Part shown: in pieces, positions 3,046 to 58,603 of the stretch
Layout: each line of letters begins with the position of its first letter
Numbering within the stretch: position 1 is the stretch's first letter
DNA from: Eubacteriales bacterium
GTDB lineage: Bacteria > Bacillota > Clostridia > Lachnospirales > Lachnospiraceae
NCBI GenBank assembly: GCA_030536755.1
Contig: JAUNPJ010000007.1
Span: 2,115 to 66,114 of the forward strand
Length of the DNA stretch: 64,000 nt
Direction of reading: 5' to 3'
Notes under the pieces: generated by a model
Database searches by the model: none
Told to the model about the DNA's origin: nothing
Seen by the model: only the letters and a program-made list of their open reading frames with translations
Translations under genes and position numbers: made by a program

Positions 3046-3100
3046 AGAACTACCGCAAAAAAGCAAAGGCAACCATACTTTATTATGAAATAAACACTCA

Positions 3101-3150
3101 AAACGTATATCTCATCCAATGAATCGTTATGAATGAGATATACGTTTTTT
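3101..3150 (+). terminator. Intrinsic terminator after spoVAE
   Basis: 15-bp stem AAACGTATATCTCAT (3101-3115) pairs with ATGAGATATACGTTT (3133-3147), followed by a T-run. Confidence 0.8.
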
Positions 3151-3164
3151 AATATTGTAATTTT

Positions 3165-3243
3165 GTAACTGTTCAGCAGGTAATATCCCGCGAGGTGTTT
3201 TCATGGATTTTGGCTCGTATCTGTGAGGGTACTGAACAGATAC
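3165..3243. mobile_element. Mini-MITE copy 1 (79 bp) with 12-bp imperfect terminal inverted repeats and an 8-bp TSD
   Basis: GTAACTGTTCAG...CTGAACAGATAC, flanked by the perfect direct repeat GTAATTTT at 3157-3164 and 3244-3251. The core matches copy 2 apart from two substitutions in the left arm and a 33-bp internal extra segment. Confidence 0.75.
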
Positions 3244-3343
3244 GTAATTTTATAAATTATTATACAAACTTATAGTTCAAAGTACTATAATATCAATAAT
3301 GAAAAGATACTATTAATCACAAAAAGACGAAAGGATGAATTAT

Positions 3344-4814: not shown

Positions 4815-5234
4815 TCAGTGATGCATTCCCTGATAGAAATACAGCAGAGAACCACATATTTTCGCAGCCGCAACCGTCACAATAATCAAAGGTACCCCGA
4901 CTTTAATTTTCAAGCGCCGTATCGCAATCGGAAATACATCCACCATTTCTGCCAACGCCAGAATCCATGCTCCAAGAAACATCCCGGCTCCAAGCCCGTA
5001 CACGGCAAGCCCGATTTTTCCAACTGCCAGAGAAGGTTCATACAGCTGCAGAATGTTACCGGCGACTGCGCCAAGCATCGTAAAATCTTCGTACAGCAAA
5101 ATCCGATCTGCCGTGTGCGTGATTCCGGCAAATCTCGGCGTAATCCCAAGTCCAATCAGCAGTGCCACCATTCCGCCCGCCGCGATCATCCCGCCGCCAA
5201 ACCCAATGACGGCCATTCCTATCTGCTGCCACAT
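4815..5234 (-). CDS. spoVAB: Stage V sporulation protein AB
   Basis: 139-aa membrane protein immediately downstream of spoVAA, overlapping it by 16 nt. GGAGGAG RBS. Confidence 0.8.
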   Translation of the reverse strand: MWQQIGMAVIGFGGGMIAAGGMVALLIGLGITPRFAGITHTADRILLYEDFTMLGAVAGNILQLYEPSLAVGKIGLAVYGLGAGMFLGAWILALAEMVDVFPIAIRRLKIKVGVPLIIVTVAAAKICGSLLYFYQGMHH

Positions 5235-5848
5235 TCCTTCTCCTCCTTACGGCAGATTTCCTCGATCACCGTTGTATCTACATCGTCCTCATAAAGACGC
5301 ATCTGCACTTGCATCGGAGTCGGATCCTGTGTGATTTTCACCCTGCCAAAATGATTAAAAAAGAACAGCACGCCAAGACCGATTCCCACCGAATACGACA
5401 GATGAAGAATATTAAATCCTGACGGCTGCTGCCCCATAAACTGGACATAAATCTGATCAAACAGCTTTCCTACATCCACGTCATTATTAAACGTCATAAT
5501 AGAAAAAGCTGTTCCAAAAAACGTGATCAGACAGACCAGCGCGGTTTTCAGATAGCTGAACATTTTGTGTTCGTGTTTTTCTGCCTCATAAGTAATGATA
5601 AAAGTTGGTTCTCCCACATGGGTCACATCCACCGTATGATCTTTTTTCTGTATTTTTTCAATGATATCCGTCACCGTGATCACATATCGTCCCGTTTTTT
5701 TGGAATCAATATTCAAAACAGGAAGTGCCCGAAAACGATCCAGCGTCTTGCTGTCACTACAGGCAAGCTGCGCCACATCCTGCAGATATACATGCGGCCT
5801 GTGAACCTCCACATTTTTATCCGTCTGAATATACAAAGTCTCGCTCAT
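5219..5848 (-). CDS. spoVAA: Stage V sporulation protein AA
   Basis: 209 aa, first gene of the spoVAA-AB-AC run. GGGAGG RBS. Confidence 0.75.
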   Translation of the reverse strand: MSETLYIQTDKNVEVHRPHVYLQDVAQLACSDSKTLDRFRALPVLNIDSKKTGRYVITVTDIIEKIQKKDHTVDVTHVGEPTFIITYEAEKHEHKMFSYLKTALVCLITFFGTAFSIMTFNNDVDVGKLFDQIYVQFMGQQPSGFNILHLSYSVGIGLGVLFFFNHFGRVKITQDPTPMQVQMRLYEDDVDTTVIEEICRKEEKECGSR

Positions 5849-9899: not shown

Positions 9900-11204
9900 T
9901 TACTGTTTCTGTGACTGCAAATACGTTTTGATCTCACCCACAAGATACAGCGAACCTGCGCAAAACAGCATTCCATCCTCTCCCTTTTTCGCCACGGCTT
10001 CTTCGTAGGCTTTCGGTATCTGTGAAAAAGCAGAAACGCTCTCACATCCATTCTGACGGAAGATTTCTGCCAGTTCCTCTGCAGGAACTTCCCGATATCC
10101 GCCTACTTCTGTCGTTACCACATGGCGGAATGTGATTGCCTCACACATTTCACGGATCATATCCTGGTAATCCTTGTCGGACACTGCGGAAAACAGCAGC
10201 GTGATTGGATACTGTTTCTGAAAATGAGCCGCTGTCTCCACAAAACGGCGGACACCATCTTCATTGTGCGCCCCGTCCACGATAATTCCCGGTGCGATTG
10301 TCTCCATACGCCCCTGCCATCTGGTATTGGCGATTCCCGCCTTCATCTGCTCCAGAGAAAGCGGCAGCTGCTCTGCCAGAACATTCATACAGGTCAGTGC
10401 CAGTCTTGCATTCATCACCTGATATTTGGCGATAAAAGGAATCTGGAATTTCTGTTTTCCAAAACGTCCGAGTTCCATTTCAAAAGAGATTCCCTGACGG
10501 TCAGCCTCCGATGACGGAGCAGCTTCTGTCAGAGGCCAGGCAGGACTTCCCAGTTCTTTCGCCTTCTTTGCAATCACCTCTGCTGCATCTGAATCATTGG
10601 CATCGTATACCACCGGAATTCCCGGCTGGATAATACCAGCTTTCTCTCCCGCGATCTCGCGCACGGTATTGCCAAGATACTGCATATGATCCAGACTGAT
10701 GGATGTAATGACGCAGGCAAGAGGGTCGTCAATGGAATTCGTCGCATCGAGCCTTCCGCCAAGACCAGTCTCCAGCACGACATAATCCATGCCGGCATCT
10801 GCAAAAATCACCATTCCCATCAAAAACAGCATTTCAAAATAAGTGGGATGATAACTGCCCTCCGCCACCAGATCATCTGCCAGCTTTTTGACCTTCAAAA
10901 AGGCATTGAGAAACGTCTCATCATCCACCATAATCTCATCCATCTGAAATCTCTCATTGATCTTTACCAGATGCGGAGAGGTAAACAGACCACACCGATA
11001 TCCGCCCTCTCTGAGCATGGATGCAAGAAATGCACAGACGCTTCCTTTTCCATTGGTTCCCGCCACATGGATCACACGGAACCGTTCCTGCGGATTGCCC
11101 AGTCTGCGCAGGCACTCCTTTGTGTGGTCAAGAGAATTTTTCGTTGTAAATTTAGGGGTTTCTTCTATATAATCAACTGCTTCTTTGTAATTCAAAACTA
11201 TCAC
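9900..11204 (-). CDS. folC: Bifunctional folylpolyglutamate synthase / dihydrofolate synthase
   Basis: Mur-ligase motifs (HVAGTNGKGS, ETGLGGRLDATN). I chose the GTG at 11204, preceded by AAGGA and 7 nt. The longer ORF to 11333 runs through the leader and MITE and is not protein-like. Confidence 0.8.
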   Translation of the reverse strand: MIVLNYKEAVDYIEETPKFTTKNSLDHTKECLRRLGNPQERFRVIHVAGTNGKGSVCAFLASMLREGGYRCGLFTSPHLVKINERFQMDEIMVDDETFLNAFLKVKKLADDLVAEGSYHPTYFEMLFLMGMVIFADAGMDYVVLETGLGGRLDATNSIDDPLACVITSISLDHMQYLGNTVREIAGEKAGIIQPGIPVVYDANDSDAAEVIAKKAKELGSPAWPLTEAAPSSEADRQGISFEMELGRFGKQKFQIPFIAKYQVMNARLALTCMNVLAEQLPLSLEQMKAGIANTRWQGRMETIAPGIIVDGAHNEDGVRRFVETAAHFQKQYPITLLFSAVSDKDYQDMIREMCEAITFRHVVTTEVGGYREVPAEELAEIFRQNGCESVSAFSQIPKAYEEAVAKKGEDGMLFCAGSLYLVGEIKTYLQSQKQ

Positions 11205-11322
11205 CGCTTTATCCTTTAGTAGTATTTTGAAGATTTCTTCTCGTATCTGTTCAGTACCCTCGCGGGATATTACCTTCCGAACAGTTACTTCTTCTCTACT
11301 ATTGTAATAACAGCGGTGATAG
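11198..11322 (-). promoter_or_regulatory. Long folC leader hairpin that sequesters the SD region and GTG start codon
   Basis: The sense strand pairs CTATCACCGCT (11322-11312) with AGCGGTGATAG (11208-11198), which covers the GTG at 11204-11202. It is extended by TTAT/ATAA next to the AAGGA SD and by TAGTAG/CTACTA (11301-11296 with 11222-11217). The apical part is the inserted mini-MITE. Confidence 0.5.
11243..11288. mobile_element. Mini-MITE copy 2 (46 bp) with an 8-bp TSD
   Basis: Plus strand reads GTATCTGTTCAG...CCGAACAGTTAC, flanked by the perfect direct repeat TTCTTCTC at 11235-11242 and 11289-11296. It is the reverse complement of copy 1 apart from two substitutions and lacks the 33-bp internal segment. 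Confidence 0.75.
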
Positions 11323-11386
11323 TTGTCCAGCACAATCGTAATTTTTTCTCCGACATTTTTTTACAATGTCAAAAAACAAACCATTT

Positions 11387-16083: not shown

Positions 16084-16330
16084 AAAAAACGCCCTCACAG
16101 CCATGCGGCTGCAAAGGGCGTATAATCGCGGTACCACCTTTGTTATGTACAAACTGTACACATCTTTCGCATCCTGTAACGGGGATGATTCGTGAAAGCC
16201 TACTATGCAGTTCAGCCTTCCGGTTCAAAAGCTACCTTCTATTCACACTGCCTGGAATATCTTACAGCCGATGAATATTCCTCTCTGTGAGGGTTATGAA
16301 TATACTCCTCTTTCTCCCAACCTTTTTCTG
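16084..16330 (-). promoter_or_regulatory. T-box leader (tRNA-Val-sensing riboswitch) upstream of valS
   Basis: Sense strand carries an AGAGAG bulge plus a GGCUGUAA distal loop. The T-box core is AAGGUGGUACCGCG. The terminator is CGCCCUUUGCAGCCGCAUGGCUGUGAGGGCG followed by UUUUUU. The UGGU in the T-box bulge predicts discriminator A73, which fits tRNA-Val. The specifier region reads GAAGGUAGC, so GUA is likely. Confidence 0.85.
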
Positions 16331-58343: not shown

Positions 58344-58450
58344 ATAAATCCTTTCTTTCTGAATCGTTGTTTCCCCGAAAATAATTATACTATTATCGAT
58401 GAAAAATGTACAGTTCTGCTTTCAAATCTGGCTTATTTCAAATTCGTATC

Positions 58451-58468
58451 GTTACTGTTCACAGTAAC
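58451..58468. mobile_element. 18-bp palindromic remnant (paired TIR cores) of the mini-MITE family with an 8-bp TSD
   Basis: GTTACTGT-TC-ACAGTAAC, flanked by the perfect direct repeat TTCGTATC at 58443-58450 and 58469-58476. Confidence 0.5.
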
Positions 58469-58507
58469 TTCGTATCACATTTACACTTTTTCTGTCCGAT
58501 ATCCATA

Positions 58508-58536: not shown

Positions 58537-58603
58537 GTTTTCTGCTTTTCGTATATAATTTTTTTATATATCATTTTTATCAATCACACAAAGGAGAACA
58601 ATT

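Follow-up and report, generated by a model that had tools for sequence, protein, structure and literature searches.

Three short palindromic inserts in a gut Lachnospiraceae contig

What are the three small palindromic inserts found in the window (the whole stretch of 64 kb analysed here), each bracketed by a direct repeat of 8 bp, and which system could have placed them there? An earlier note, made from the sequence alone, had taken them for an ultra-short family of MITEs with ends recalling the IS66 family. The analysis reported here indicates that the three inserts are very probably decayed copies of one non-autonomous MITE of pig-gut Lachnospiraceae, which carries ends of the ISBst12 type (IS66 family).

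Copy 1 (79 bp, positions 3165-3243, plus strand) has terminal repeats at both ends and the layout GTAATTTT / GTAACTGTTCAG...CTGAACAGATAC / GTAATTTT; as read in the sequence, the left target-site duplication (3157-3164) is perfectly matched by the right one (3244-3251). Its left terminal inverted repeat, GTAACTGTTCAG, is of the ISBst12 type and occupies 3165-3176 on the plus strand, and the right one (3232-3243) corresponds to GTATCTGTTCAG on the minus strand. Copy 2 (46 bp, 11243-11288, minus strand) is inverted relative to copy 1 and has the layout TTCTTCTC / GTATCTGTTCAG...GAACAGTTAC / TTCTTCTC, the duplication (11235-11242 and 11289-11296) being GAGAAGAA in the orientation of the element. 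Copy 3, GTTACTGTTCACAGTAAC (58451-58468), is an 18-bp remnant or footprint set between two copies of TTCGTATC (58443-58450 and 58469-58476); it forms a perfect mini-palindrome, GTTACTGT-TC-ACAGTAAC, made of two terminal-repeat halves comprising the outermost end bases only.

All three inserts and their perfect flanking duplications are thus read exactly where the earlier note had placed them, and so are the imperfect 12-bp terminal inverted repeats it described for copy 1: GTAACTGTTCAG and GTATCTGTTCAG, which are present in all full copies, match at 11 of 12 positions. The core said to be common to copies 1 and 2 stands in part. The two copies do share an unbroken stretch of 17 nt, followed in copy 1 by a 30-nt segment before GGGTA, but the 20-mer GGTAATATCCCGCGAGGGTA is contiguous in copy 2 only.

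The recurrence of these motifs exceeds what is expected by chance. GTWWCTGTTC occurs five times in the window against 0.38 expected, a count reached by none of 100 shuffles, and the 17-mer GGTAATATCCCGCGAGG twice against 0.03 expected. A generic search for the duplication structure, namely an 8-mer followed by GTWWC...GWWAC and by the same 8-mer, with a spacer of up to 400 nt and over 666 kb (the window plus the fetched loci), returned the three window copies and other copies of the same element, with no false positives.

A full-length family in a related genome

A scan of one genome per bacterial species with a strict 23-base left-end pattern, CTGTTCNNNNGGTAATATCCCGCGAGG, returned eight loci on eight contigs, all of them belonging to a single MAG, Lachnospiraceae bacterium SUG1049. 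The count of copies across genomes that the earlier note had proposed therefore yields at least eight further copies in this MAG, besides the three in the 64-kb window. At seven of the eight loci the element is complete, has the same ends and measures 137-143 bp; it is flanked by 8-bp duplications which are perfect in five cases (GAATAATG, GTTTATTC, GTATATGT, GAGAAGAA and GAGGAAAT) and matched at 7 of 8 positions in two. The full form has no ORF, its interior consisting of hairpins only, and its ends are GTAACTGTTCAGCAGG on the left and GTATCTGTTCAGTACC on the right, with terminal inverted repeats of 12-16 bp; the left end starts with GTAAC, the right one with GTATC or GTAAC in the window copies. 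The seven full copies are 93-99% identical to one another, a degree of likeness that suggests a fairly recent spread of the element within the SUG1049 genome.

The eighth locus (L006) is a truncated left end of 56 bp, within which a 251-aa ORF comes to its end: at 4834-4848 (minus strand) the element contributes its four final codons (VTVQ) and its TAG stop. In place of the remainder of the element stand a terminator and, downstream, a large gene, presumably glutamate synthase-like as judged by eye. L006 was considered as an autonomous copy and rejected on account of this truncation and of these neighbours.

The window does not come from SUG1049, to which it is 86-90% identical where the two overlap; contigs identical or nearly identical to it originate from pig-gut-type metagenome series. 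All three copies in the window are of the decayed kind. The description of the family as ultra-short holds for the window copies (79, 46 and 18 bp) and for forms of about 70-80 bp, which recur, but not for the full form of 143 bp. Altogether, 8-bp duplications, mostly perfect, are found at the three window sites, at seven SUG1049 sites and at the locus L136, described next.

Shorter relatives and another MITE occur in viral contigs. A viral scan with GTAACTGTTCAGNACC gave 91 loci, three of which are MITE-like after filtering for an inverted partner. L136, in a gut viral contig, is a short relative of 81 bp with a perfect 8-bp duplication, and L153, at a different site in another gut viral contig, measures 69 bp. 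The third, L101 (IMGVR_UViG_3300029573_000354, minus strand, 5451-5594), is a different MITE of 144 bp whose interior is unrelated to the window family; its ends, GTAACTGTTCAGAACC and GTAACTGTTCAGAGCC, have the same terminal 12 bp and are flanked by a perfect AATTTATC duplication. As these three lie in gut viral contigs, MITEs of the ISBst12 type are not confined to the window lineage.

History and decay of the window copies

The window copies were mapped with nhmmer on a 143-bp model built from the seven full copies, and copies 1 and 2 both prove colinear with its consensus. Copy 1 corresponds to consensus positions 1-44 joined to 99-143, the absent 64 bp lying between two TTTTCATG(N)ATTTTG direct repeats, and copy 2 to positions 1-31 joined to 125-143, with 97 bp absent at a GAGG microhomology. 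Of copy 3 (GTTAC...GTAAC) only 18 bp are left, three of which depart from the consensus termini.

The three copies have different ages. The site of copy 2, between a sulfatase-domain (LtaS-like) gene and a folC-like gene, is occupied in all three lineages in which it was seen: SUG1049 (L005, with flanks 86-90% identical to the window) and a second relative (L078) both carry the full 143 bp within the same GAGAAGAA duplication. Since these two keep the full element at the same site, the insertion of copy 2 predates the split of the three lineages, and its deletion, judging from these orthologous sites, is specific to the window lineage. The 79-bp form of copy 1 is identical in ten conspecific contigs and is therefore fixed in the species; a look-up of SpoVAE, the upstream protein, retrieved conspecific contigs only, each with an identical 79-bp copy, and in a relative of 93-94% identity the end of the contig lies 14 nt left of the 8-mer.

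The window strain shares copy 3 with one identical contig only. Ten contigs of the closest group do not have it, nor do a 95% group, a further lineage at 95% and a 94% group. At this site the relatives are without exactly 26 bp, that is, the 18 bp plus one 8-mer, so that the empty site that the earlier note had asked for, bearing a single 8-mer, is clean in four related lineages. Because of this clean empty site copy 3 is, as far as the comparison of relatives can date it, the youngest insertion, though the shortest copy. The same empty site, together with the eight further copies in a related genome with 8-bp duplications of their own, upholds the claim that transposition and not chance produced these structures. 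An ISBst12-type element, L056, also has a GTTAC end, and copy 3 may derive from a sister element. The youth and the shortness of copy 3 fit both a rapid hairpin-driven collapse and an excision footprint. In practical terms the three copies provide strain markers of different depth, copy 3 being strain-specific, copy 1 species-wide and copy 2 common to at least three related lineages.

Terminal repeats of the ISBst12 type

Insertion sequences of the IS66 family have ends that start with GTAA and generate an 8-bp duplication (PMC11946415). The resemblance to this family suggested by the earlier note can be refined, for the MITE ends match those of the single-ORF ISBst12 group at 11-15 of 16 positions, with duplications of 8 bp in both. 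ISDge4 of Deinococcus geothermalis, an element of this group with a single 449-aa transposase, has the ends GTGACTACTCAGCA and GTAACTGCTCAGCA and an 8-bp repeat (PMC12898284). ISGka4, on the Geobacillus plasmid pHTA426, ends in GTAACTATTCAGCC and GTATCTATTCAGCC and has the 8-bp duplication AACTCGTC; elements of Geobacillus thermoleovorans, Bacillus thuringiensis and B. cereus have ends of the GTAACTA(T/C)TCAG type and a duplication that is perfect where intact. The end GTAACTGCTCAGCAGG of a Deinococcus wulumuqiensis element, whose duplication is not intact, matches the MITE at 15 of 16 positions, and six elements in viral contigs show the same end type (the right end of L057 being GTAACTGTTCAGTCGG) along with perfect duplications. 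Two further elements come from gut or Lachnospiraceae sources, namely a 1814-bp IS of Anaerostipes sp. 494a (Lachnospiraceae), with ends GTAACTATTCAGCACC and GTATCTATTCAGGACA and perfect duplications in five of eight contigs (four distinct sites), and an IS of 1804 bp, found in the pig-gut sample sets that also contain the window species, with ends GTAACTATTCAGCACC and GTAACTATTCAGAACC and a perfect duplication at two distinct sites.

When the MITE terminal repeat is compared with the GTAACTRYTCAG consensus of the group, it matches the right end of L057 at 12 of 12 positions, and ISGka4 and the Anaerostipes IS at 11 of 12. The asymmetry between a left GTAAC and a right GTATC is common to the MITE, ISGka4 and the Anaerostipes IS. 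Within single ISs (L057, the D. wulumuqiensis element and ISDge4) base 7 differs from one end to the other, as A or G, so the G that the MITE has at this base is within natural variation. The likeness between the MITE and these ISs ends after about 12-17 bp, their interiors being unrelated; the assignment to the IS group hence rests on the terminal repeat and on the length of the duplication. Accordingly, the search for a full-length IS with the same ends, which the earlier note had advised, succeeds in that ISBst12-type ISs match the ends, and fails in that none of those found has the subterminal sequence of the MITE.

Search for a partner transposase

As had been stated beforehand, the window holds no IS66-type gene: tblastn with five ISBst12-type transposases (that of ISGka4 and four from Clostridia) found no gene for such a transposase in the window, at the eight SUG1049 loci or at the relatives' loci examined. 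There is no DDE_Tnp_IS66 (PF03050) transposase between the MITE ends either, and since the element encodes none it is a derivative that shares the ends, not the IS itself. No autonomous element combining GTAACTGTTCAG ends with the MITE subterminal sequence was present in the genome, viral, metagenome and plasmid collections scanned. The absence of the transposase is weak evidence, because MAGs and short-read assemblies often lose IS copies.

Several candidates were discarded along the way. Two protein-pattern scans of viral contigs for a partner gave only ISs with ends of the GTAACTATTCAG type, and two Lachnospiraceae transposases that were looked up belong to ISs which match at 11 of 12 end positions and are unrelated in subterminal sequence. 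The four matches of a metagenome scan with GTAACTGTTCNNNNGGTAATATCC were all due to chance, in unrelated sequence; a viral scan with GTAACTGTTCAGNAGGTAAT hit a conserved phage coding region only, and one with GTGAGGGTACTGAACAG gave a single extra match, again by chance. BLASTN of the 143-bp element against PLSDB plasmids returned no match. As a side observation, in two pig-gut contigs (L071 and L074, locus positions 1-127) an ISBst12-type IS adjoins a DDE_Tnp_1 (PF01609) transposase gene, a neighbourhood which suggests a cluster of ISs.

From the ends and the duplications a plausible course of events can be drawn. A DDE transposase of the ISBst12 group (PF03050), encoded elsewhere in the genome or formerly present in it, would bind both ends and mobilise the MITE in trans; insertion into AT-rich intergenic targets would proceed via 8-bp staggered cuts, the repair of which would give rise to the 8-bp duplication. 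Once inserted, the copies would decay by internal deletion at short direct repeats, a process probably aided by hairpins. The forms at hand make up a series running from 143 bp to about 80, 69, 46 and 18 bp.

Alternative explanations

The decay series could also be read in reverse, the form of about 80 bp being ancestral and still mobile, the 143-bp form of SUG1049 a derived expansion, and copy 1 no deletion derivative at all. This order would account for the colinear short forms at independent sites in unrelated contigs (L136 and L153), and for the identity of copy 1 throughout its conspecific contigs. I nevertheless regard it as unlikely, for an imperfect 15-bp direct repeat (TTTTCATGCATTTTG / TTTTCATGGATTTTG) flanks the extra 64 bp of the long form, so that one deletion step leads from long to short, and the junctions of copy 1 and of L136 fall on different sides of the single mismatch (C/G) in this repeat, as expected of independent deletions. 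Moreover, a simple inverted duplication of the short form would not give the order in which the extra arms stand in the long form. The short form is without the pairing partners of the two hairpins, and its fold is not better than that of shuffles (z = -1.6). At the site of copy 2, 143 bp are kept in two species, the 46-bp form being found in the window only. The forms of about 70-80 bp are thus better read as putative products of repeated deletions at the 15-bp internal direct repeat. A comparable degree of doubt attaches to the idea that copy 3 is an excision footprint, left when a full MITE or IS was cut out and 8-10 nt of each end stayed behind between an intact duplication. Its being the youngest insertion (absent from four related lineages) yet the shortest, and a perfect palindrome of nothing but outermost end bases, would suit a footprint; on the other hand, a full element at this site was not found in any strain looked up, a hairpin-promoted deletion yields the same product, and in the work on Deinococcus geothermalis the transposition of the ISBst12 group is described as copy-and-paste, which would leave no footprint (PMC12898284). 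The bolder proposition, that copy 3 is such a footprint and ISBst12-type transposases therefore excise, or else that it represents a minimal mobile substrate far below any described MITE, earns somewhat less credence still, although a true footprint would bear on the poorly known chemistry of IS66-family transposition.

Decay of one ISBst12-type MITE remains the preferred reading when two more distant accounts are considered. Several other families also make 8-bp duplications, and one of them, for example IS6, ISL3, IS256 or IS1595, might have mobilised the element; IS6 ends, GGTTCTGTTGCAAAGT, even share CTGTT with it. This is very improbable given that the IS6 consensus matches the MITE at about 8 of 16 positions only, whereas all the ISBst12-group elements inspected have GTAACTRYTCAG ends and 8-bp duplications and match it at 11-12 of 12. 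It is hardly credible that the inserts never moved, being structured intergenic repeats (REP-like sequences, terminators or a small RNA) with 8-mers beside them by coincidence: such a nature would agree with the strong structure of the full element and with its intergenic location, often just after stop codons or terminators, but it has to face perfect or near-perfect 8-bp duplications at ten different sites, the presence/absence polymorphism of copy 3 with its clean empty site, the lack of an Rfam match and the likeness of the ends to a known IS group.

Relation to known elements

The MITE resembles the ISBst12 group (ISBst12, ISGka4, ISDge4 and the unnamed 1.8-kb elements of Anaerostipes and of pig-gut Clostridia) in its GTAACTRYTCAG(C) ends, its 8-bp duplications and its preference for AT-rich targets, as well as in the GTAAC/GTATC asymmetry that several of these ISs display. 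It differs from them in size and content, the ISs measuring 1.6-1.8 kb and encoding a transposase of ~480 aa (PF20042 + PF03050), whereas the MITE is at most 143 bp long and has no ORF. IS66 proper, that is, the multi-ORF IS66, IS679 and ISEc8 type, has the GTAA starts and the 8-bp duplication of the MITE (PMC11946415). Its repeats, however, are of 20-30 bp and start with GTAAGCG, while those of the MITE start with GTAACTG, the variant of the ISBst12 group.

The classical bacterial MITEs, such as Correia/NEMIS, RUP, ERIC, Nezha and Chunjie, are like the present family non-coding elements of about 100-250 bp with terminal inverted repeats and target duplications, and share with it the stable hairpins, the intergenic location and the size variants arising by internal deletion (PMC3184786, PMC10969869). 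They differ from it in end sequence and in the IS family that serves as partner. Chunjie, an element of Geobacter with 21-bp repeats and 9-bp duplications, is unlike this family, and for its host and the length of these duplications it was rejected as an ISBst12-related MITE. REP and REPIN sequences are short palindromic intergenic repeats, as are the window inserts. REPs go with RAYT (IS200-like) transposases and have no target duplication, unlike the MITE copies with their 8-bp duplications and the ends of a DDE-type IS.

In the literature searched, the coverage of which was incomplete, no published MITE attributed to IS66 or ISBst12 was found. The family therefore appears to be undescribed, although the element is of an ordinary sort, typical of bacterial MITEs in all the respects tested, and reveals no new kind of system. 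Its interest lies in providing a concrete example of a non-autonomous element linked to the ISBst12 group, the mechanism of which has received little study; the 143-bp element, along with the natural deletion series of about 80, 69, 46 and 18 bp, offers a substrate for questions on end requirements. For annotation, the family accounts for small palindromes inserted in the genomes of uncultured gut Lachnospiraceae, and for repeats there that matter to assembly.

Fold, target sites and gene context

In the full element the terminal repeats close a long hairpin, inside which two further stems form. The folding energy of the element is -27.6 kcal/mol for DNA (z = -5.5 against shuffles), and -52.6 and -58.1 kcal/mol for RNA (z = -6.6 and -8.5). 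Most of this fold is lost in the window copies, copy 1 included. The 143-bp element has no significant match in Rfam.

The target 8-mers are AT-rich and, in the orientation of the element, start with G at eight of nine sites (P about 1e-4), and also at L136; counted over the window sites (3157, 11289 and 58469), L001-L008 and L136, a G start occurs at 9 of 11. No such G start was observed at the target duplications of the ISBst12-type ISs inspected. With a symmetric duplication, a target bias tied to orientation would not ordinarily be expected.

A strong terminator-like hairpin 3' of spoVAE precedes copy 1 by 14 nt, and the following gene (Big_2) comes about 100 nt beyond this copy. Copy 2 is set between two co-directional genes, and copy 3 in the divergent promoter region that separates a methyltransferase gene from a MatE gene. 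Several of the SUG1049 copies directly adjoin stop codons, and the element at L002 stands between a stop codon and a terminator. At L007 the GAGGAAAT duplication was considered as a duplicated ribosome-binding site, an interpretation rejected since a separate site, belonging to the downstream gene, is present further along.

Some features of the surrounding sequence deserve mention in their own right. The hairpin upstream of copy 1 (window 3100-3150, plus strand) has a 16-bp stem followed by a T-run and ends the spoVAD-spoVAE unit (-19.7 kcal/mol as RNA, z = -5.2); a simple terminator scan missed it because of its long loop and few G-C pairs. A perfect 13-bp inverted repeat of the host, AACTATCACCGCT / AGCGGTGATAGTT, at 11196-11208 and 11312-11324, brackets copy 2. 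The GTG start of the folC-like gene (11204-11202, minus strand) falls within its downstream arm, and the repeat could therefore occlude this start codon; in L078 and L005 it is kept with one mismatch and without a compensating change. The sole Rfam family to reach its gathering score in the window is a T-box leader (RF00230, 113 bits) at 16111-16327 on the minus strand.

Near the gene flanking copy 3, relatives with a 94%-identical MatE have an insert of ~230 bp just upstream of the MatE start, and within it a Clostridiales-1 RNA (Rfam RF01699, 127 bits; L020, 9741-9904, plus strand, and also L021-L023). This insert is absent from the window (about 58560-58600), from the closest group (L024-L033) and from L092, and at L097 only its last ~40 nt are kept.
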